A stretch of 63,288 nt of DNA, the filler included, from Reclinomonas americana ATCC 50394 (lineage: Eukaryota): assembly GCA_048213135.1 (NCBI GenBank). It is 7 parts of 7 records of this genome, joined end to end, with 100 filler letters (N's around TTAATTAATTAA, not from the genome) between each part and the next. Parts side by side here need not be neighbours in the genome. Positions count along the whole stretch, not along the records: positions 19,055 to 46,906 come from AFZH01018702.1; 6 more parts are not named here. One strand, written 5' to 3'. The notes beneath the pieces were generated by a model that was not told where the DNA came from, searched no databases, and saw nothing but the letters and a program-made list of their open reading frames with translations. Below, one piece after another: positions 22,867-58,180 of this stretch (positions are counted from its first letter, which is position 1; every line of letters begins with the position of its first letter). Position numbers and translations under genes: made by a program.

Positions 22867-23614
22867 AAAGAACAGGCGTATCATTTCGTCACAACTCGTG
22901 GACGTGCCCATTGCGGCAGGGAGGCTAGCTGTGGCTAGACCAGGTCGGGGCTATCCCGTCTTATTCATGAGGGCACTGGATCGAGAGTGGCGAGCGTAGC
23001 GTAAAGCACTGATTTGGCTTAGGGATTGGGTGCTGACGCCAACATCCTTCACCTGATCGAGCCCGCCACGCCCGCCATGTCCGATGCTACAGCGCTGCCG
23101 TTCGCGTTTCCATCCGTCCGGGGCAAGAAGCTCACAGCCGCCTTCGACGGCGGACGCCTGACCTCGGACGGTGGTGTCTTGCTGCTTTCACAGGCCGCCC
23201 GGCGGTTGCGCATTGCCGAAAAGCTCGCCGCCGTGATCCCCGATCGGCGCGATCCGAGCCGGGTCTTGCACCCTCTGCCCGAGATCCTGCTCGCCCGTAT
23301 CCTGGCCATCGCCTGCGGCTACGAGGATGCCGACGACCTCGATCACCTGCGCGCCGATCCCGCCTTCAAGCTCGCCTGCGGCCGCCTGCCCGAGAGCGGC
23401 CTCGAGCTGATGAGCCAGCCCACCGTCTCACGGCTGGAGAACACGCCCGGCCTGCGCGATCTGATCCGGCTCGGACGGGTGATGGTCGAGCTGTATTGCG
23501 CCAGCTGTGCACGGCGGTGAGAAAACCATCCAGTGAAGCGCCTGCGTTTGTGCGGGCGCGGGCGGCGTAAAAGTCGTCCACTGGATAGGCTGATCCCTTT
23601 CGGGGTCGGCGGGG

Positions 23615-25114
23615 ATGTTCGCTGTGGAGGTCTACGCGGCGGTTCGCGATTTCGTTTTCAATCAGAAGCAGAGCCGACGGGAAGCGGCTCGCGTGTTCGG
23701 GCTGAGCCGCGAAACGATCGCCAAGATGTGCCGGTTCTCGATCCCTCCGGGCTACACGCGCACGAAGCCGGTCGAGAAGCCGAAGCTCGGTCCGCTGCTG
23801 CCGGTGATTGAGGCGATCCTGGACGGAGACCGGGCGTCTCCGGTGAAGCAGCGCCATACGGCGAAGCGGATCTTCGAGCGGCTGCGGGACGAGCACGGCT
23901 TTGCCGGCGGCTACACGGTGGTGAAGGACCATGTGCGGCTCTGCCGGGCGCGGGGCCGCGAGACCTTCGTTCCGCTGGCCCATCCGCCCGGTCACGCCCA
24001 GGTGGATTTTGGCGAGGCGCTGGCGGTGATCGGCGGCGTGCGGCAGAAGATCCACTTCTTCTGCCTGGACCTGCCACAGTCGGATGCCTGCTTCGTGAAG
24101 GCGTATCCGCGCGAGACGACGGAAGCGTTCCTGGACGGTCACGTCTCGGCTTTTGGCTTCTTCGGCGGTGTGCCGCTGTCGATCCTCTATGACAACACCC
24201 GCATTGCGGTGGCGAAGATCTGCGGCGATGGCCGGCGCGAGCGGACGCGGGCCTTCACCGAGCTGGTGAGCCACTATCTGTTCCGGGATCGGTTCGGGCG
24301 CCCGGGCAAAGGTAACGACAAGGGCAAGGTCGAGGGGCTGGTGAAGTATGCCCGCTCGAACTTCATGACGCCGATCCCTTTGGCGGCGAGCTTCGCCGAA
24401 CTGAACGCGATGTTGGCCGAGCGCTGCCGCCGCCGACAGGACGAGCGGGCCGGCCGGCATGGCCAGACGATCGGGGAACGGCTTGTTGCCGATCTCGGGG
24501 TCTTGCGCCCTTTGCCGGCAGTGCCGCTGGAGCCGTGCGAGAAGCGTGGTGCGCGGGTCTCGTCGACGGCGCTGGTCCGATATCGGTCGAACGACTACTC
24601 GGTCCCGACGGACTATGGCTTCCAGGACGTGGTGGTGAAGGGCTTCGTCGAGGAGGTCGTGATCCTGTGCCGGGGCGAGGAGATTGCCCGCCATCCCCGC
24701 AATTACGGGACGGGCGTGTTCGTCTCCGATCCGCTGCACTATCTGGCGCTAATCGAGGAGAAGCCGAACGCCCTCGACCAGGCGGCGGCCTTGCAGGGCT
24801 GGGACCTGCCCGAGGCCTTCCAGCACCTGCGCCATCTCCTGGAAGCGCGCATGGGCAATCGCGGCAAGCGCGAGTTCATCCAGGTGCTGCGGCTGATGGA
24901 GGCCCTGCCGCGCGACATCGTGAGCTTCGCCGTCGGCGAGGCGATCCATCTCGGTGCGATCGGCTTCGATGCGGTGAAGCTGATCGCGCTGGCGCGGCTG
25001 GAACGGCGCCCACCGCGCCTCGACCTCGCGGCCTATCCGCATCTGCCGAGAACGGCGGTGAAGACGACGTCGGCCTCCGATTATGCCGTGCTCCTGCCGG
25101 GAGCGGCGGCATGA
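23615..25114 (+). CDS. istA: IS21 transposase IstA
   Basis: AQVDFG, ILYDN, KGKVE form the DDE motifs. Confidence 0.96.
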   Translation: MFAVEVYAAVRDFVFNQKQSRREAARVFGLSRETIAKMCRFSIPPGYTRTKPVEKPKLGPLLPVIEAILDGDRASPVKQRHTAKRIFERLRDEHGFAGGYTVVKDHVRLCRARGRETFVPLAHPPGHAQVDFGEALAVIGGVRQKIHFFCLDLPQSDACFVKAYPRETTEAFLDGHVSAFGFFGGVPLSILYDNTRIAVAKICGDGRRERTRAFTELVSHYLFRDRFGRPGKGNDKGKVEGLVKYARSNFMTPIPLAASFAELNAMLAERCRRRQDERAGRHGQTIGERLVADLGVLRPLPAVPLEPCEKRGARVSSTALVRYRSNDYSVPTDYGFQDVVVKGFVEEVVILCRGEEIARHPRNYGTGVFVSDPLHYLALIEEKPNALDQAAALQGWDLPEAFQHLRHLLEARMGNRGKREFIQVLRLMEALPRDIVSFAVGEAIHLGAIGFDAVKLIALARLERRPPRLDLAAYPHLPRTAVKTTSASDYAVLLPGAAA

Positions 25115-25965
25115 CAAAAGAGACGATGCCGGCGGGCACGACCGCGGGAACGCCGCAGGTTCTGCTGGCGCACCACCTCAAGCAACTGAAGCTGCCAACC
25201 GTCCTGCGCGAGTACGACAAGGTGGCACGGGAATGCTCCCGCGACGGCGTCGATCATCCCCGCTACCTGCTACGGTTGGTCGAGCTCGAACTGATCGACC
25301 GGGAGCGGCGCACGGTCGAGCGGCGGATCCGGGCGGCGCGCTTCCCAGCGGTGAAGAGCTTCGACACCTTCGACTTCACGGCGATCCCGAGCCTGAACAA
25401 GATGCTCGTGCTGGAGCTGGCGCGCTGCGGCTACATCCTGCGCCGGGAGAACATCATCGCGCTCGGCAACAGCGGCACCGGCAAGACCCATGTCGCCCTC
25501 GCGCTCGGGCTGGCCGCTTGCCAGAAGGGCTTCTCCGTCGCCTTCACGACGGCGGCTTCGCTGGTCAACCAGCTTCTCGAGGCCCGCGACGAGAAGCGCC
25601 TGCTCCGGCTCCAGCGCGAGTTGCAGGCGGTCAAGCTGCTGATCGTCGACGAGCTTGGTTATGTGCCGCTGTCACCGACCGGCGCCGAGCTCCTGTTCGA
25701 GGTCTTCTCGCAGCGCTACGAGCGCGGCTCGACCATCGTCACCTCGAACCTGCCCTTCGAGGACTGGACGTCCGTCCTGGGATCGGAACGGCTGACCGGC
25801 GCGCTGCTCGACCGCCTGACCCACCACGTCAGCATCCTCGCCATGAACGGCGACAGCTACCGCCTCAGGCAATCCGCCGGTCGCCGGCGTGCCGCCGCCG
25901 CGGCGGAGCAAAACCAGGCCACCCCAGACGAAGCCGATCCCGAAACCGGGGAGATCATCGCCTGA
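25111..25965 (+). CDS. istB: IS21 helper ATPase IstB
   Basis: [33 protein letters not shown] overlap with istA. Confidence 0.96.
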   Translation: MTKETMPAGTTAGTPQVLLAHHLKQLKLPTVLREYDKVARECSRDGVDHPRYLLRLVELELIDRERRTVERRIRAARFPAVKSFDTFDFTAIPSLNKMLVLELARCGYILRRENIIALGNSGTGKTHVALALGLAACQKGFSVAFTTAASLVNQLLEARDEKRLLRLQRELQAVKLLIVDELGYVPLSPTGAELLFEVFSQRYERGSTIVTSNLPFEDWTSVLGSERLTGALLDRLTHHVSILAMNGDSYRLRQSAGRRRAAAAAEQNQATPDEADPETGEIIA

Positions 25966-25981
25966 TCAACACCGGCAGTGC

Positions 25982-26019
25982 GATATGGCAAGGGCCCCGA
26001 TCGGGGCCCTTGCCATATC
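25982..26019. repeat. Perfect 38-bp palindrome in the IS21 right end
   Basis: GATATGGCAAGGGCCCCGA-TCGGGGCCCTTGCCATATC with no spacer. Confidence 0.95.
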
Positions 26020-27540
26020 CGCCGCTCCCCAACGCCAGTGGCCTGCTTTTACTCCGCCACGATGGCCTGGAATCCGACCGCCGTTGACAGCCAGCTATGC
26101 CGCGCCGCCCAAAGCCGTCACCCTGGATATCGACGACACCTGCGACGTGGTGCATGGCCACCAGCAGCTCTCGCTGTTCAACGGCCATTACGATGAACGC
26201 TGCTTTCTACCGATCCACGTCTACGACACCGCCACCAGCCGTCCCGTCGCGGTCATCCTGCGGCCGGGCAAGACGCCCTCTGGACACGAGGTGTGCGGCC
26301 ATCTGCGCCGCCTGGTCCGCGCCATCCGCCGCCACTGGCCGGACACCGCGATCACGCTGCGTGGCGATGGCCATTACGGTCGGCCCGAGGTCATGGATTG
26401 GTGCGAGGACAACGCCATCGCCTACGTCTTCGGCCTGACCGGCACCAAGGTATTGGCCGCCAAGGTCGAGCCGACCGCCGATCCTATCCGGGTCGAGCGG
26501 GCGATCGGCAACAAGGACGTGGTGCGCGGCTTTGCCGAGGCCACCCACGCGGCCAAGTCCTGGCGGCAGAAGCGCCGCGTCGTCGCCCGCATCGAGGCCA
26601 CCCGGCTCGGGCTCGACATCCGCTACGTGGTCACCAACATCGCGACCGGCACGCCGGAATGGCTCTATGCCGACCTCTATTGTGCCCGAGGGCAAGCCGA
26701 GAACCTGATCAAGTTGCACAAGAGCCAACTCGCCTCCGACCGCACCTCCTGCCGGAGCCCCGCCGCCAACCAGATGCGGCTTGTGCTGCACACTGCCGCC
26801 TATTGGCTGATGCTCACATGGCGCGACGCCATCCCGAAAACCCACGGCCTCGCCAAGGCCGAGTTCGCGACGATCCGCCTGCGCCTGCTCAAGCTCGGAG
26901 CCCGCATCCGCGAGACCGCTGCTCGTGTCCGCCTCGCCTTCGCCGCTGCCTGCCCCGAGGCTGATCTGTTGCGCCTTCTCGCCGGTGCACTCGCCCCGGC
27001 TCCTGCCTGAACGACGGGGCCAAGACGCCCCGAAAATCCGATCCCGTCCCTCTCGCCATCGACCAAACAATCCAGATTAGCCAACGACGCACGACCAATC
27101 AGGACGGCGCTCGACAAGGCACGCTCGCAGCCAAAAACCTTGGCCGTCCACAGACGTCGTGAATAAGACGGGCTATATCGCCAACTGCATCGTCGCGAAT
27201 GTTGCTGATGTCGAAAGCCTGCAGAGCAAAAAATCCTAAGATCGCCGCCCGCTTGCGATCGGCGCGGACAGCTGGCTCGATGGGCCTACATGCGCTCGCT
27301 ATGAAACGTTATTGCTTGCAGCTCCTCCGCCGTTTGATGCGCTATATGCTAACTAAAATACAGAGAAATCAGCCCAGTATGACACGAAAGTCGCGATTCC
27401 CGCACGCGAATTCCCGCCATGAACTGTAGATTTCGACAGTTTTTGTGAAACGTTTTCTTGACTCATTGAGCGCAAGGCGAGATTGTGGATGGGAAGTGAC
27501 GCTCTGCGTCCTCCAGGAATTAGACTTCACAGGAGAGGTA

Positions 27541-42691: not shown

Positions 42692-43269
42692 ATGGGAACT
42701 CCTTATGGTTCGCCGAGCATCAATTACTGGATGCTTGGCCGCCGCGCTCCCGGTTGGACAGAACTCTACAATTGAGGAATGCGCCAACCACCGATGGTGG
42801 ACCTCCGACACGACTTGGTCGACTCGACTAGTTGGTCGGAGGGATGACATTCAGCACTTGCCTCATGTTTCGCTATCCGCAACGTCGTTTTATATGTTCT
42901 CAATCGGGAATGGAAGTCAAGCGGCATTTCGAACGACGGCTTGAGCGCCCGATTTGACCAATTTCGCAGGCGATTTCTGGCTAGTAATGAAAAATGTAGC
43001 AACTTATGACCGGGAACTTGCAATATATTCATAGACAACAAGAACAAATGTTAGTGATGTTGTCTAACTATGGTTCATTAGATCATCTAGATTTGTAAAT
43101 AATATAGGCATGTAATTTGCGCATTGTATATTATTTAATCTCTATATATTTCATCAAGCCAGTTCGTAGTGAATCATCCCGTACGCCAGCTATTGACAAA
43201 CGGTTAAAGTTCTAGCGGAATAGGTGTCCGAAACGACGTTGCGGATTGCGCAACGAGCAGGGAGCACGG

Positions 43270-43659
43270 ATGATGGACGAGAACAACGCTGTTCCGCAAT
43301 ACAACTGGGAATCGATTCCTGAGCGCGAATTGCGCAAAGGCGTGACACAGAAGGTATTCAGGGGGGATGATGTGGTTGTTGGCCAGACGACGTTATGGCC
43401 AGGTATGCAAACTGCTCCACACAGCCACCCGTGGGAGCAGATTTTTATGATCCTCAAAGGGCGGGTTACGCTTCATGTGGGAAATCAGACATACGATTGC
43501 CCTGCAGGTACCGTCATCAGAATTCCGCCAAACGTTGAGCATTGGGCTGATGGTCCTCGTCCAGAGGACGGACCCGCGCTCAACCTCGATATCTGGACCC
43601 CTCTTCGTCCGGACTACGCGAAGTTTACTGATTACCAAACGGACAAATTCAGTAAGTAG
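43270..43659 (+). CDS. Cupin domain protein
   Basis: PHSHPWEQIFMILKG...IPPNVEH. Confidence 0.9.
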   Translation: MMDENNAVPQYNWESIPERELRKGVTQKVFRGDDVVVGQTTLWPGMQTAPHSHPWEQIFMILKGRVTLHVGNQTYDCPAGTVIRIPPNVEHWADGPRPEDGPALNLDIWTPLRPDYAKFTDYQTDKFSK

Positions 43660-43859
43660 AAGTACCGGCTGTGAGTTACGACCCTGGCCTCTTCTGGCAG
43701 GCCAGGGTCTTCCCGGGCGTCGTTGTGTCCGCAGGAGTGGATATCCGCGCGAGAGCCAGGAGATGGTCTTCGATGCCCATGACCGGGCCTTCGCCTTCTT
43801 CAAGGGCGCCTGCACGCGCGGCATCTACGACAATCTATGGACGCCTCCCGCTGCAAGGT

Positions 43860-44085
43860 AGTTCTGTGGGCAACGTCGGCTTGGGTTGCATGAATCTATC
43901 CGGCCTATCGCTGGAGCGATCATGCTCCTGGCCTTGATGGGAGTCCGCTGCTTCTCGCCTCATAACATGATCGGCCTCGACGGCCTTGTCGTAGATCAGG
44001 CTTGGAAGCGGCGATCCTTGCCGTTGCACCATCAGTCTCCACCTCGCATTCACCGCCGCATCAGCGGCGATCCGGTTAGCCAACT
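43860..44085 (-). ncRNA. Predicted bridge RNA / seekRNA (ends approximate)
   Basis: Target guides 43986-43996 and 43964-43970 match the flanks; donor guides 43934-43942 and 43893-43899 match the element ends; each pair brackets a GGCC/GGCC stem. Confidence 0.88.
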
Positions 44086-44088
44086 TGA

Positions 44089-45093
44089 TTAGGCAGGTAT
44101 GTAGCTCTCCTTCCTCGCCATCAGCACCCAGGCGATCCGCGCGGTCTTGTTGGCGAGTGCGACTAGCGCCTTGTTGAATCCAGCTCGCGCCACGATGCCC
44201 TTCAGCCAAACCGACCGCCGATCATCGCGGCCGGCCAATCGGCTGATGACGGCACGGGCGCCATGGATCAGTTGGCGCCGCAGATAATGATTAGCGCGGC
44301 GACCGATGCCGCCGAGTCGGGGCTTGCCGCCGGTCGTGTATTGGCGAGGAACAAGACCGATCCATGCGGCGAGTTCGCGACCCGAGCGGAAGTGGCGGCC
44401 ATCATCGACAGCGGCAACAAGCGCAGTGGCGATCACTGGCCCTACACCGGGCAACGCAGTGAGCCGGCGACAGGCTTCGCGCTCACGGCAGAGCGTCACG
44501 AGCTTTGCATCGAGCCTAGAAAGCCTGGCTTCAACGTCGTGCAATTGGTCGAGAAGGTCTGTGAACAGCTCACACGCAAGTTCAGAAAGACCTGCGTCGG
44601 CGATCATCGCGGGCGCCCGCTCGCGGAACCGCCACGACCCCTTCGGTAGCACGACGCCGTATTCAGCGAGCAGACCTCGCGCGTGATTGATGAGTGAGGT
44701 GCGCTGGACGACAAGCCGCTCGCGCACCCGATGCAGTGACTGCAAGTCCTGCTGCTCGGTCGTCTTCACCGGCACGAAGCGCATGGTGGGCCGCGATGCA
44801 GCTTCATAAATTGCCTCGGCGTCGACTGCGTCGTTTTTCGAACCGCGCACGAACGCCTTCACGAACCGTGGGTTGATGAGCATCACCCGCCTTCCATCCG
44901 CCTCGAACCGCCGGCCCCAGTGGTGCGCGCTCGCGCAGGCTTCCATCGCAACGACGGCGGGGGAAAGCTCGGCCACAGCGGCATCGAGCTTAGCGCGGCC
45001 GACCTTACGCGAGATCACCACACCTTCCGCATCGATCGCGTGCAGGTGAAACGACTGTTTGCCAAGATCGATGGCCAACAACTGAGTTGTCAT
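44089..45093 (-). CDS. IS110-family DEDD recombinase/transposase
   Basis: AIDLGK, MEAC, KNDAVDA (DEDD RuvC-like); LPGVGP, FRSGRELAAWIGLVPRQYTTGGK, LIHGARA, VALANKTARIAW; RBS AGGAGG. Confidence 0.96.
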   Translation of the reverse strand: MTTQLLAIDLGKQSFHLHAIDAEGVVISRKVGRAKLDAAVAELSPAVVAMEACASAHHWGRRFEADGRRVMLINPRFVKAFVRGSKNDAVDAEAIYEAASRPTMRFVPVKTTEQQDLQSLHRVRERLVVQRTSLINHARGLLAEYGVVLPKGSWRFRERAPAMIADAGLSELACELFTDLLDQLHDVEARLSRLDAKLVTLCREREACRRLTALPGVGPVIATALVAAVDDGRHFRSGRELAAWIGLVPRQYTTGGKPRLGGIGRRANHYLRRQLIHGARAVISRLAGRDDRRSVWLKGIVARAGFNKALVALANKTARIAWVLMARKESYIPA

Positions 45094-46062
45094 CGCTTTC
45101 CTCCTTCTGGTGAGGCACCCAAGGTGGCCGGAAAGCGGGAGGCGTCCATCCCATAACATGAAGACGGCGGTGGAGACGATCTTCGTCGGCAAGGAGCGGG
45201 CCTATAACCGCCGCTTCCAGCAGATGTGCAGCCATTACCTGGTCGATCCCGTCGCCTGTACGCCGGCCTCGGGCTGGGAGAAGGGGCAGGTCGAGAACCA
45301 GGTCGGGCTCGTGCGCGAGCGCTTCTTCGCTCCCCGCCTGCGGGTCAAGAACTACGACGAGTTGAACGCCTGGCTGCTGGATCAGGTGCTCCGTTATGCC
45401 AAGGCACACCGCCATCCCGAACAGCGTGACCGCACGATCTGGGAGATGTTCGAAGCCGAACGGGCAAGCCTCGTGCCTTACGCCGGGCGGTTCGATGGCT
45501 TCCATGCACTGCCGGCCTCGGTGTCGAAGACCTGTCTCGTGCGCTTCGACAACAACAAGTACTCGGTCATCGCGAGCGCGGTCGGGCGTCCCGTCGAGAT
45601 CCGCGCCTATGCCGATCGGATCGAGCTGCGCCAGGACGGGCGTATCGTCGGCGAGCATCCCCGCTGCTATGGCCGCGACCAGACCATCTACGATCCCTGG
45701 CACTATGTCCCGGTACTGGCTCGCAAGCCGGGAGCCCTGCGTAACGGCGCGCCCTTCAAGGATTGGGTCCTGCCCGGTGCGATCGACCGGGTCCGACGCA
45801 AGCTTGCTGCCGTTCAAGACGGCGATCGGCAGATGGTCGAGATCCTCGCCGCGGTGCTCAGCGACGGGTTACCTGCCGTCGAAGCTGCCTGCGCGGACGC
45901 CCTTCGGCAGGGCGTCCACTCCGCCGACGTGATCATCAACATCCTGGCCCGGCGCCGGGAGCCGGCGGCAGCGATCACGATCATGACGCCCGATGCCTTG
46001 CGGCTGCGCCATGAGCCCGCCGCCGATTGTGCCCGCTACGACAGCCTCAGGAGAGCCGTGTG

Positions 46063-46791
46063 ATGGAACGCTCGGAGATTCTCGCCACCATGGGCGAGCT
46101 CAAGCTCTATGGCATGAAGGCCGCCTTCGACGAGATCATCGCCACAGCGGTGAAGCGCCAGCACGAGCCGCAGCGCGTCGTCGGCGATCTGCTCGCCGCC
46201 GAGATCGCCGAGAAGCAGGCCCGTTCGATCAAGTATCAGATCACCATCGCCAAGCTGCCGCTCGCCAAGGATGTCGCCGACTTCGCCTTTGACGGCACCC
46301 CGATCAACGAGACCCTCGTTCATGATCTCGCCGGCGGCAACTTCCTGGCGCACCAGCGCAACGTTGTCCTCGTCGGCGGGACTGGGACCGGCAAGACCCA
46401 TCTCGCCATCGCGATCGCCCGGGCCTGCATCCGTGCCGGTGCTCGCGGCCGCTTCTTCAACGTCGTCGATCTCGTCAACAAGCTCGAGGCCGAAGCCCGC
46501 GCCGGCCGCCAGGGCCGCATGGCCGATTATCTCGCCCGCATGGACTTCATCGTCCTCGACGAACTTGGCTATCTGCCCTTCGCACAGTCCGGAGGACAAC
46601 TGCTCTTCCACCTGGTCAGCAGGCTCTACGAGCAGAGCTCCGTCATCGTCACCACGAACCTCGCCTTCGGCGAATGGCCGTCCGTCTTCGGCGACGCCAA
46701 GATGACCACCGCGCTCCTCGACCGGCTCACCCATCACTGCGACATCGTCGAAACCGGCAACGAGAGCTGGCGCTTCAAGAACAGGCTCTGA
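46063..46791 (+). CDS. istB: IS21 helper ATPase IstB
   Basis: [31 protein letters not shown]. Confidence 0.96.
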
Positions 46792-47006
46792 GCCTCCCCG
46801 AGACCCAACGATCCGGAGCCGGCGCGGCTGCGCAATCCAGACCAGCTCCGCCGCGCCGCCTCCTCGCCGCGAAGCATACTCAAGGGGTCAACATTGGACG
46901 CCAATCNNNNNNNNNNNNNNNNNNNNNNNNNNNNNNNNNNNNNNNNNNNNTTAATTAATTAANNNNNNNNNNNNNNNNNNNNNNNNNNNNNNNNNNNNNN
47001 NNNNNN

Positions 47007-47437
47007 AACTCCCGCTCGTAGCCATTGGCGACCATGCCACCGATCAGCTTCTCGCCGAATTTGCTGACCCCGCCGGTGTGCTTGAAAGTCGCCATGGCGC
47101 GGCGAAGCTGGTCGGCTTCGCCAGGCGTGAAGCCGGCGCATTCGATGGCGACCCGCATCGCCTGTTCCTGGAACAGCGGCACGCCGAGCGTTTTGCCGAG
47201 CACGGCTTCGAGCTCGGGCTTGGGATAGACGACGTCCTCCTTGCCTTCACGCCGGCGCAGATAGGGATGCACCATGTCGCCCTGGATCGGGCCCGGCCGC
47301 ACGATCGCGACCTCGATGACAAGATCGTAGAAGGTGCGAGGCTTAATCCGCGGGAGCATCGCCATCTGCGCACGGCTCTCGATCTGGAATGTGCCAAGCG
47401 TGTCGGCCCTGCAGATCATCGCGTAGGTGCGCGGATC
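47007..47437 (-). pseudogene. dnaE2: Error-prone DNA polymerase DnaE2 (ImuC) internal fragment
   Basis: [55 protein letters not shown]; the 5' part is replaced by the KAP gene and the 3' part runs into the gap. Confidence 0.92.
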
Positions 47438-48303
47438 TCCGGAGCGAGGACTTCGTGGAACAGATTGAGCACATGCACCCCCAGCTCCTCGCTTGGTTCA
47501 CCCGTCAAACCAAAGAGCTGCACCTGGAGATGTCGCTGCAGGTCGGCAGGAGCGGCTGAAGGCAGCTCAAATGACGCCTGCACGATCTTTTCGAGATAAT
47601 GCGGCCCTTCGCTCGGGAACCGCTCTTGCACAACCTTCTCCGCCAAGCGGCGATCGAAGGCCAGCACATAGATCACATTGGGAAGGCGTCCGACGGATTT
47701 GACCAGCCGAAACATCGCGAGCGCCTCATCGGGCGCGAGCCGATCGATGTCGTCGATCAGGATGACGAAGCGCTTCTTTTGCTCGGCAAGTGCATCGGCG
47801 AGTTCGCGATGCAGCTTCTCGACGCTGTCGCCATCGGAAATCAGGCCGCTCAGCCACTGCATAGTGCCGGATGCAATTGCACCAGCGCCGCCGGCGCCGA
47901 GCGCGTCAGCAGTCGGGGCAACCACGCTTCCCGCTTTCAGGAGCCGCGCGCCAAGCTTTGGAAGCAATTGCTTGGCTTTGGCTGCAAGACTGGGATCAAG
48001 CGCCGCGTTCAGCTCGCGGAAGAATGCCAAAACCAGCGCCTCCTCCCCACGAAACCACCAGGGATTGAAGGAAACGACCGCCAGCTCGTCAGCGGCCACC
48101 GCATCCGCCAGGCTCAGCCTCAACAGATTCATCGCGCTGCTTTTGCCAGAGCCCCAAGGTCCGTTCAGACCGATCACAACGCCTTGCGGCGTCTTCATCT
48201 GACGGACGCTGCGGCCCAGCGCCTGCACAAATGGCATGATGCCGAACAGATCCTGCTCGGGGTTGCTGATTGGCAGATCGCCGTAATCCAGCTCGAGTGT
48301 CAT
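47416..48303 (-). CDS. KAP-family P-loop NTPase, probably C-terminally truncated
   Basis: [42 protein letters not shown]; its stop lies inside dnaE2-derived sequence. Confidence 0.9.
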
Positions 48304-48313
48304 CGGTTGAACG

Positions 48314-48844
48314 TCAGGCCTTGGGCCAGGAGGATTGATCTTTGGGAAGGCTCTCGTCTGGATCGTGGACTGCGACGGAATCAGAAGCGCTCAGGTTTGC
48401 GCCGAAAACGACCAGATTAGTTCCACCCGGATGCCGGAGTGAGGGGAACAAGATCCCCCCGTAGCCCGCGGAAATCACAGCATCCGCAAGCAGCCAGGAT
48501 GGCGGGATCTTGCCCAGGATGTTGTAGATTTTCCGCCAGTCACAGTCCCATGACGCCCAGGCCGCTGCCCAGATATTCGGATCGTATCCCGCTGAGAAAT
48601 CGACGACTTGTTGAAGGTCGATCTTGTATGCAGCAAGCGTCGCGGGTCGAGTCAATGACGAACCCTGGCGATATTCCTCCAGCGCAGTCTGCGGCGCGCG
48701 CGAAAGATAAAGCGCCTCGACACCAATTCGATTGAAGCGGCCGCCGACCATAGCAGCGCCCGCTCCGCTTGTCGGCACGAAGGCCCACTTTGGCGTCAGA
48801 TAGCGATGGAAGACCTCGTCCGGTCCAAGCCGGACAAGCTTCAT
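48314..48844 (-). CDS. RES-domain toxin
   Basis: SGAGAA..GGRFN, ALYLS, TALEE, GILFPS, GGTNLVVF; ATGA-coupled to the upstream antitoxin. Confidence 0.92.
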   Translation of the reverse strand: MKLVRLGPDEVFHRYLTPKWAFVPTSGAGAAMVGGRFNRIGVEALYLSRAPQTALEEYRQGSSLTRPATLAAYKIDLQQVVDFSAGYDPNIWAAAWASWDCDWRKIYNILGKIPPSWLLADAVISAGYGGILFPSLRHPGGTNLVVFGANLSASDSVAVHDPDESLPKDQSSWPKA

Positions 48845-58047: not shown

Positions 58048-58180
58048 CCGGAGGACCGCGCTCCAGGTCATCCTGTCCTTTGCCTGGCTGTCCCTCTTCA
58101 GTGACGCCAAGACGACCGCCGCGTTCCTCGGCCGGCTCACCCATCACTGCGACATCGTCGAAACCGGTAACGAGAGCTGG
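58048..58180 (+). mobile_element. istB remnant
   Basis: [28 protein letters not shown], closely similar to istB at about 46675-46770. Confidence 0.8.

Follow-up and report, generated by a model that had tools for sequence, protein, structure and literature searches.

An IS1111-type insertion sequence with predicted RNA guides in the catalytic codons of IS21 istA

Recombinases of the IS110 and IS1111 families are under development as genome-writing tools, and their natural targets are little known. For members of these families, homing has been reported into other mobile elements, namely into terminal repeats of Tn21-type transposons and IS1384. The mechanism in which a seekRNA or bridge RNA guides such an insertion sequence (IS) to its site has already been published, as set out in the texts drawn on here (Durrant et al., 2024, PMC11208160; Hiraizumi et al., 2024, PMC11208158; Siddiquee et al., 2024, PMC11187229). 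In the text of the last of these, IS1111 elements are described as having subterminal repeats of at least about 11-13 bp, extensions of 7 bp and 3 bp outside the repeats and non-coding DNA downstream of the transposase gene, and their seekRNAs as placing the complement of the top strand first (PMC11187229). This report concerns a stretch of 63,288 nucleotides (hereafter the window) from assembly GCA_048213135.1 of Reclinomonas americana ATCC 50394, made of seven parts joined by filler letters. In this window an IS1111-type element splits istA, the transposase gene of an IS21 copy. The best explanation, and a very probable one, is that the 3' non-coding region of the element encodes a seekRNA/bridge RNA that guides it into istA. 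An initial annotation of the window had proposed an RNA guide aimed at the catalytic Y-D-N codons of an IS21 transposase, and its interpretation as a whole is largely supported. As a target, the catalytic Asp codons of istA are real, recurrent and guide-encoded.

The split istA gene and the predicted guides of the insert

The left flank of the insert, ATCTACGACAA, ends in ATC TAC GAC AA, and the right flank resumes with CATGA (Table 1). Joined, the two flanks give a 16-mer coding for I-Y-D-N-M-(K) of IS21 istA. The coordinates and strings given for target and flanks in the initial annotation were found in the sequence as stated. The same annotation had placed the split right after the Asp codon. 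AA stands on both sides of the insert (43832-33 and 45155-56), so that the break may be there or may equally fall two bases later, in the Asn codon. From the left, the istA reading frame runs to ...FFKGACTRGIYDN, passes through nine codons of the insert and then meets a stop. From the right it opens MKTAVETIF.... The target has the arrangement of the IS21 family, in which an IstA DDE transposase is followed by the AAA+ helper IstB.

The target codons carry a catalytic residue. In IS5376 IstA, the DDE triad has been assigned to D124, D187 and E233 with mutational support (PMC10122671). In a phmmer alignment, D187 (LFDNMKT) of this solved IstA falls on the Asp of ILYDNTR in the window's second, intact IstA, where codon count makes the YDN Asp residue 193 and the Asn residue 194. 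As the initial annotation had held, the IstA triad has its second residue in the Asp of Y/F-D-N. By tblastn, every split istA breaks at residue 194 of the window's intact IstA. Such a break leaves the DNA-binding domains with the first two catalytic residues on one side and the Glu with the beta-barrel on the other. A PDB search with the C-terminal fragment of the disrupted istA by itself gave no match at E <= 0.001, so the catalytic mapping rests on the alignment of the intact paralogue together with the tblastn break points.

The insert belongs, as an ordinary member, to IS1111 of the IS110 superfamily, a known family of RNA-guided elements. The following features of that family were found: a single transposase with DEDD and Tnp domains, subterminal repeats, 7/3 extensions, a downstream non-coding region and the guide order. 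In the transposase, PF01548 (DEDD_Tnp_IS110) was matched at residues 7-145 (5.8e-18) and PF02371 (Transposase_20) at residues 208-285 (4.5e-22), both above the curated cut-offs. Non-coding DNA amounts to about 62 nt (62-63) upstream of the transposase gene versus 257 nt downstream (43834-44091). The terminal extensions measure 7 bases on the left and 3 on the right in transposase orientation, a count that assumes that the shared TT belongs to the left end. The transposase matches the solved ISCro4 and IS621 transposases distantly (E = 8e-07 over the Tnp domain), and the motifs IDLGK, AMEAC and NDAVDAE are present at the sequence level when read against the IS621 residues listed in the text of Hiraizumi et al. 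(2024, PMC11208158). YTTGG, a loop sequence of this protein, recurs in 39 of 75 related proteins, with STGG or SSGG in its place in those more distant.

To characterize the predicted RNA, 32 distinct related elements were aligned over their 3' non-coding regions and the fold was scored on a named structure. In the consensus fold, 97.1% of cells are paired and compensatory changes occur in 10 of 34 pairs. An equally good result was reached by none of 500 shuffles, slid controls had 34-49% of cells paired, and the single-sequence fold gave z = -4.07. The fold contains an internal loop between helices 51-54/93-96 and 67-70/77-80, the latter closing a GGCC hairpin. The two sides of this loop are the only hypervariable blocks of the alignment, and each holds one of the strings that match the target (guides 1 and 2 in Table 1). 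Such matches were not expected by chance: ATCTACGACAA occurs exactly twice in the window, in the flank and on the minus strand at 43986-43996, versus 0.02 expected, and CATAACATGA has two occurrences, one at the right junction (45152-61) and one at 43961-70, versus 0.03 expected. Together with the covariation of guides and targets described below, these matches bear out the proposal of an RNA guide aimed at the YDN codons. Along the minus-strand transcript guide 1 comes before guide 2, that is, with the top-strand complement first. The three RNA bases after guide 2 match the start of the element's own end. A donor guide for the left end was also considered at RNA ...CUCCCAUCAA... and rejected as a simple guide; it needs a one-base bulge, and the segment lies in the covarying helix 17-22/115-120.

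In the proposed mechanism, the 3' non-coding region would encode a seekRNA/bridge RNA with its two guides on opposite sides of one internal loop. The guides would pair with the two strands of the 16-bp site over stretches of 11 nt and 7 nt, one to each side, that have a TT/AA core in common. The DEDD transposase would then recombine a circular element into this core in one fixed orientation, antisense to istA. By analogy with the described systems, the RNA would be made and bound by the transposase, a circular intermediate would form and cleavage would fall at the core. The element and its relatives would thereby home into istA I-Y-D-N-M-K, cutting through the catalytic domain after the second Asp and before the Glu. 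Homing into istA may have been selected because the site is a harmless, conserved and horizontally travelling landing place.

Recurrence at the istA site and retargeting of the guides

Relatives were collected by a transposase scan with one genome per species, and the best 80 of 301 relatives were analysed. At 22 of these 80 loci, IstA homology abuts both junctions (or the sole available one); the break falls at residue 194 in every case, and istA and the transposase gene run on opposite strands throughout. Where transposase identity is at least 70%, the element lies in istA at 20 of 24 loci among the best 80. Elements were counted as having the same guide pair when they were within two mismatches of the window's guide 1 and one of its guide 2, which gave 22 elements including the window's own. 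At 19 of the 21 that could be tested, IstA homology is met exactly at the junction; copies with the same guides thus do not lie mostly outside istA, the outcome that the initial annotation had named as contrary to its view. Close element copies in five carrier genomes abut IstA in all 8 cases. The same istA split was found in the three plasmid matches examined (of 18 records), ISAtu1 included. The Agrobacterium plasmid matches H7-H17 have near-identical coordinates and identity.

The hosts of these insertions are diverse. Their IstA C-terminal fragments are 37-81% identical to the window's, and the flanks of 21 rows form 18 clusters at 90% identity, with L004/L006, L013/L019 and L018/L027 sharing clusters. 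In one genome, two copies of the element are 100% identical over 1321-1325 nt and sit in two istA genes that are 76-78% identical (DNA). Elsewhere, two elements that are 98.2% identical have flanks that are 68-71% identical. These near-identical elements in diverged istA genes, together with the 18 flank clusters, exclude a single spreading composite as the main explanation, and they show that homing to the istA site has occurred repeatedly and independently. One of the istA copies, L036 from Aminobacter (1356-1552), has lost the whole guide loop by a deletion of about 60 nt and has one TGA in the transposase frame; it is still in istA and is probably an immobilised relic.

The exact 16-mer has 13 occurrences in 10 of 201 genomes from the order of one carrier, and a reversed control has none. 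Of these occurrences, 12 fall at the YDN site of istA homologues, some of which are just ~40% identical in protein to the window's. The site had been called often multicopy in the initial annotation; this holds modestly, but with the exact site in only 10 genomes, and twice in only 3 of them, not more than that. In the five carrier genomes both exact sites lie in uninterrupted full-length istA. None of the 18 sites examined in these genomes with one or two mismatches was in an IstA homologue (there were 15 further such sites). The 16-mer thus comes near to being a signature of istA, with an occupancy that is not saturating. Within the 63-kb window, no site within 3 mismatches of the 16-mer was found.

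The window's intact istA has a homologous YDN site, which is unoccupied and five mismatches away from the target, as previously noted. A variant element, L012, sits in an istA that is 74-83% identical in protein to the window's intact IstA. Read by eye from the sequences, its guides 1 and 2 would match the site at 24185-24200 in 10 of 11 and in 7 of 8 bases. The lineage has therefore moved on to the equivalent codon in a second IS21 subfamily.

Targets other than istA were found in sister lineages. In a quick maximum-likelihood tree of 71 transposases, a clade of 46 rows with full support (100 in the Shimodaira-Hasegawa-like approximate likelihood ratio test, SH-aLRT) falls into three groups of 27, 16 and 3 rows, and the group of 27 contains all 23 istA rows. 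The group of 16 has guides UAAGGAACGAU / CUCAUCUU and targets genes that Pfam, in two examples, identified as HTH_Tnp_1 (IS3-family orfA); the insertions sit on the ribosome-binding site and the start codon. In members L041 and L044 of the group of three, and in L080, an IS3-orfB locus off the tree, an IS3 orfB with an rve domain is split at (C/Y)-D-N|A-x-A-E. Guide 1 of this orfB class is near the istA-class form (ACCUACGACAU), and guide 2 is changed. Two further targets are nested in the istA group. L026 sits at A-Y-N|M-K of a DDE_Tnp_1 gene (IS5 type) and combines a new guide 1 with an unaltered guide 2. L043 lies in an RVT_1-like gene (Pfam score below the cut-off) at L-Y-D|K, and each of its guides differs from the window's at two positions. 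The retargeting events found mainly alter one guide in each.

Guides and targets change together. Matches between a guide pair and its own target average 15.8/19, versus 9.3/19 across target classes. In the istA class, UAU stands in guide 1 of three elements, all of them at TAT targets, and 11 of the 12 elements with C at that position of guide 1 have C in the target; this tracking represents roughly two independent events. TTC variants of guide 1 track TTC targets. In the IS3-orfA class, guide 1 ends in AU, not AA, and the right-junction dinucleotide is sometimes AT or TC, not TT (L033, L034; L020, L021, L039), which hints that core mismatches are resolved differently at the two junctions.

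Alternative explanations and the state of the locus

Several observations weigh against a guide RNA that leads the element into istA. The transposase has Thr where the S-G motif of the ISCro4 transposase has Ser (loop GLVPRQYTTGG, residues 246-256, 44332-44364). No convincing complement to the element's left end was found in the RNA, and a search of Rfam 15 gave no matching family, the sole match being a sub-threshold small RNA within the coding region. Natural guide-target pairs are often imperfect, with 8-11 of 11 positions matched by guide 1 and 5-7 of 8 by guide 2, so the pairing rules are looser than the window's perfect match suggests. Two of the 21 same-guide elements are outside istA. 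L047, with istA-type guides, is in an HNH_2 gene at a string matching 14/16 (FYDNMR), and L016 is at a one-base-shifted look-alike in unassigned DNA with no IstA homology. Two orfA-type elements, L033 and L034, are at the start of an unrelated gene. These four exceptions fit recognition at the sequence level with some tolerance. Finally, the host IS21 copy is itself 5'-truncated, with just 92 nt of istA left of the insert. This makes the knock-out effect at this particular locus moot, the copy being dead whatever the insertion does.

It is extremely improbable that all istA cases descend from one ancient insertion, after which a composite IS21::IS1111 spread as a unit (through IS21 transposition in trans, plasmids or descent) and the position was simply inherited. 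Some loci do share flanks, namely the three pairs named above, and the Agrobacterium plasmid matches may be one event. A single composite is nevertheless already contradicted by elements that are 98-100% identical in istA genes that are 68-78% identical (DNA), two copies in one genome among them. The number of flank clusters, a host IstA identity (37-81%) that does not track transposase identity (68-87%) and the uninterrupted istA with the exact site in carrier genomes argue in the same direction. The site could also be picked by the protein or by the structure of the DNA, with the complementary strings as bystanders, for example captured target fragments or a regulator antisense to istA. In favour of this idea, donor-end recognition could not be assigned to the RNA, and end recognition in IS1111 may differ from that in IS110, as the text of PMC11187229 allows. 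It is highly improbable all the same, given guide strings at fixed positions in a conserved, covarying RNA scaffold and the change of these strings with the target in five target classes while the transposases stay 64-87% identical; moreover, related IS1111 elements have been experimentally reprogrammed via these very segments (PMC11187229).

The guide-RNA explanation can also be held without any adaptation to IS21. The guides would then merely specify a 16-mer that is almost confined to istA, and parasitism would be a by-product. Recognition at the sequence level and the insertions at look-alikes outside istA, such as FYDNMR in L047, agree with this, as does the presence of the exact site in just 10 of 201 genomes. 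Against it, the whole 46-row clade aims at mobile-element genes (istA, IS3 orfA starts, IS3 orfB, an IS5 transposase and an RT-like gene), and L012, with its variant guide pair, has reached the homologous codon in another istA subfamily. Both are hard to explain without selection for such targets, and the by-product view is considered unlikely. On balance, and with some reserve, we favour a lineage of RNA-guided IS1111 elements that are specialised hyperparasites of other mobile elements. Their guides would have been redirected from one conserved codon of a mobile-element gene to another, for the most part by changing a single half-site at once. The terms safe harbour and parasitism of IS21, used in the initial annotation, belong to this evolutionary interpretation.

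Table 1. Coordinates of the element, its predicted RNA and the IS21 sequences, in window positions.
Feature	Position	Strand	Details and basis
Unoccupied homologous YDN site, CTCTATGACAACACCC, in the intact istA (23615-25114)	24185..24200	+	5/16 mismatches to the target
istA 5' remnant, 92 nt, ending ATC TAC GAC AA (...GIYDN)	43742..43833	+	blastn against full-length istA relatives starts at 43742
Target left half, ATCTACGACAA, codons I-Y-D plus AA, read by guide 1	43823..43833	+	Guide match
IS1111-type IS110-family insertion sequence, 1323 bp counting one flanking AA/TT copy	43834..45156	-	Ends by comparison with 40+ related elements
Conserved structured RNA (predicted seekRNA/bridge-RNA scaffold) inside the 3' non-coding region	43834..44048	-	Alignment and consensus fold
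Subterminal inverted repeat, right-end arm (transposase orientation), then 3-nt extension	43837..43852		16 nt, 100% complementary to 45134-45149
Guide 2 (predicted), RNA AUCAUGUU; core and right flank 7/8 (AACATGA on + strand)	43964..43971	-	Loop 3' side, alignment columns 82-92
Guide 1 (predicted), RNA AUCUACGACAA, complement of transposase-sense top strand; left flank 11/11	43986..43996	-	Loop 5' side, alignment columns 56-66
Transposase gene, 334 aa, DEDD/RuvC-like and Tnp domains; stop codon 44089-44091	44092..45093	-	Pfam
Subterminal inverted repeat, left-end arm, after 7-nt extension (counting TT)	45134..45149		Left-end sequence conserved across the clade
Target right half, CATGA	45157..45161	+	Guide match
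istA 3' part, 301 aa from M-K-T; third-catalytic-residue region and beta-barrel	45158..46063	+	PF22483 (Mu-transpos_C_2) 4.1e-23
istB of the same IS21 copy	46063..46791	+	PF01695 (IstB_IS21) 1.9e-75

The host IS21 copy had already lost its 5' part when the element arrived, or lost it later. Homology to istA begins right after a cupin gene (43246-43659, Pfam Cupin_2) and an 11-bp perfect hairpin (43680-43709), and the first ~160 istA codons are gone along with the IS21 left end. The 3' istA fragment is 79-81% identical to the uninterrupted IstA of L119, L122 and L124. In a full-length IS21 interrupted in this way, translation would run nine codons into the element (LWTPPAAR after YDN; window 43834-43861) and then stop. 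The product would be a shortened IstA that keeps its two HTH domains and lacks just one catalytic residue of the three, and it could interfere with intact IS21 copies. An istB-like relic of 32 aa at 58085-58180, 78% identical to the istB of the host copy, suggests a further decayed IS21 copy.

Other features of the window were also noted. The intact IS21 (istA and istB, 23615-25965) lies inside a DDE_Tnp_1_4 (IS1380-type) transposase gene (23026-23520 and 25889-27010). That gene breaks at profile positions 133 and 130, and gives the window another, unrelated instance of an IS within an IS. In window coordinates past the host IS21 copy, a gene for a KAP family P-loop NTPase (47416-48303) adjoins a RES-domain gene (48314-48844), both on the minus strand. 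A run of N (46907-47006) lies between istB and these two genes. Of 20 public runs listed, one alone contained over half of the sampled words.

Meaning of the istA target and comparison with known systems

If the favoured reading is true, the lineage acts as a natural, self-spreading knock-out of rival transposases, each insertion splitting a catalytic domain. Codons of catalytic motifs are kept constant by purifying selection and carried on plasmids, and their interruption costs the host nothing. The locus would be a named case of IS-on-IS parasitism that points to the exploitation of other mobile elements as a habit of the whole clade, and that may shape the copy number of IS21 and IS3 in Alphaproteobacteria. 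The relatives would likewise form a ready-made natural series from which the reprogramming of bridge or seek RNAs in the wild can be learned, with dozens of natural guide-target pairs whose mismatches are known, such as the Asp wobble base beside the core. For annotation, an IS110-family gene between two pseudogene pieces labelled IS21 family transposase is to be read as one event, not three.

No IS110/IS1111 targeting of istA, of IS21 or of transposase catalytic codons was found in the literature searched, which did not extend to ISfinder notes, PDF supplements and subscription journals. IS21 and istA are not mentioned in the main text and text supplements of PMC11187229 (its PDF supplements, with the target logos, were outside the search). 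ISAtu1 is not mentioned in the full-text literature searched. ISAtu1 is a close named relative on the Agrobacterium Ti plasmid NC_002377, where it has the RefSeq label 'IS110-like element ISAtu1 family transposase'. Across 82% of the element, its DNA is ~73% identical to that of the window's element. The two have their end sequences and their istA site in common, the ISAtu1 junctions being partly decayed. ISAtu1 is a different member, with ~70% protein identity.

Relative to the IS110 group, the element resembles the bridge RNA recombinases of the IS621 type, as their texts describe them, in having predicted guides for both target strands, a 2-nt core and two protein domains (Durrant et al., 2024, PMC11208160; Hiraizumi et al., 2024, PMC11208158). 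The three RNA bases that continue past the core into the element's own end resemble the handshake guides published for IS621 (PMC11208158). Unlike in IS621, the predicted RNA lies at the 3' end and not the 5' end, the guide order is reversed, the core is TT and not CT, and the sequence match is distant. The elements said to home into the repeats of Tn21-type transposons and IS1384 land in non-coding terminal repeats, whereas this lineage lands in transposase codons for catalytic or otherwise conserved motifs and destroys the gene. The window's element is also close to the IS1111 elements with a seekRNA (ISEc11, ISKpn60 type, IS1111A). As presented in the text of that study, they have a DEDD transposase, subterminal repeats, 7/3-nt extensions, a long downstream non-coding region, two short target matches with the top-strand complement first, and orientation-specific insertion with no conventional target duplication (Siddiquee et al., 2024, PMC11187229). 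The window's element shares all of these and differs from the elements in that text in its target, which is the protein-coding catalytic motif of another IS's transposase.

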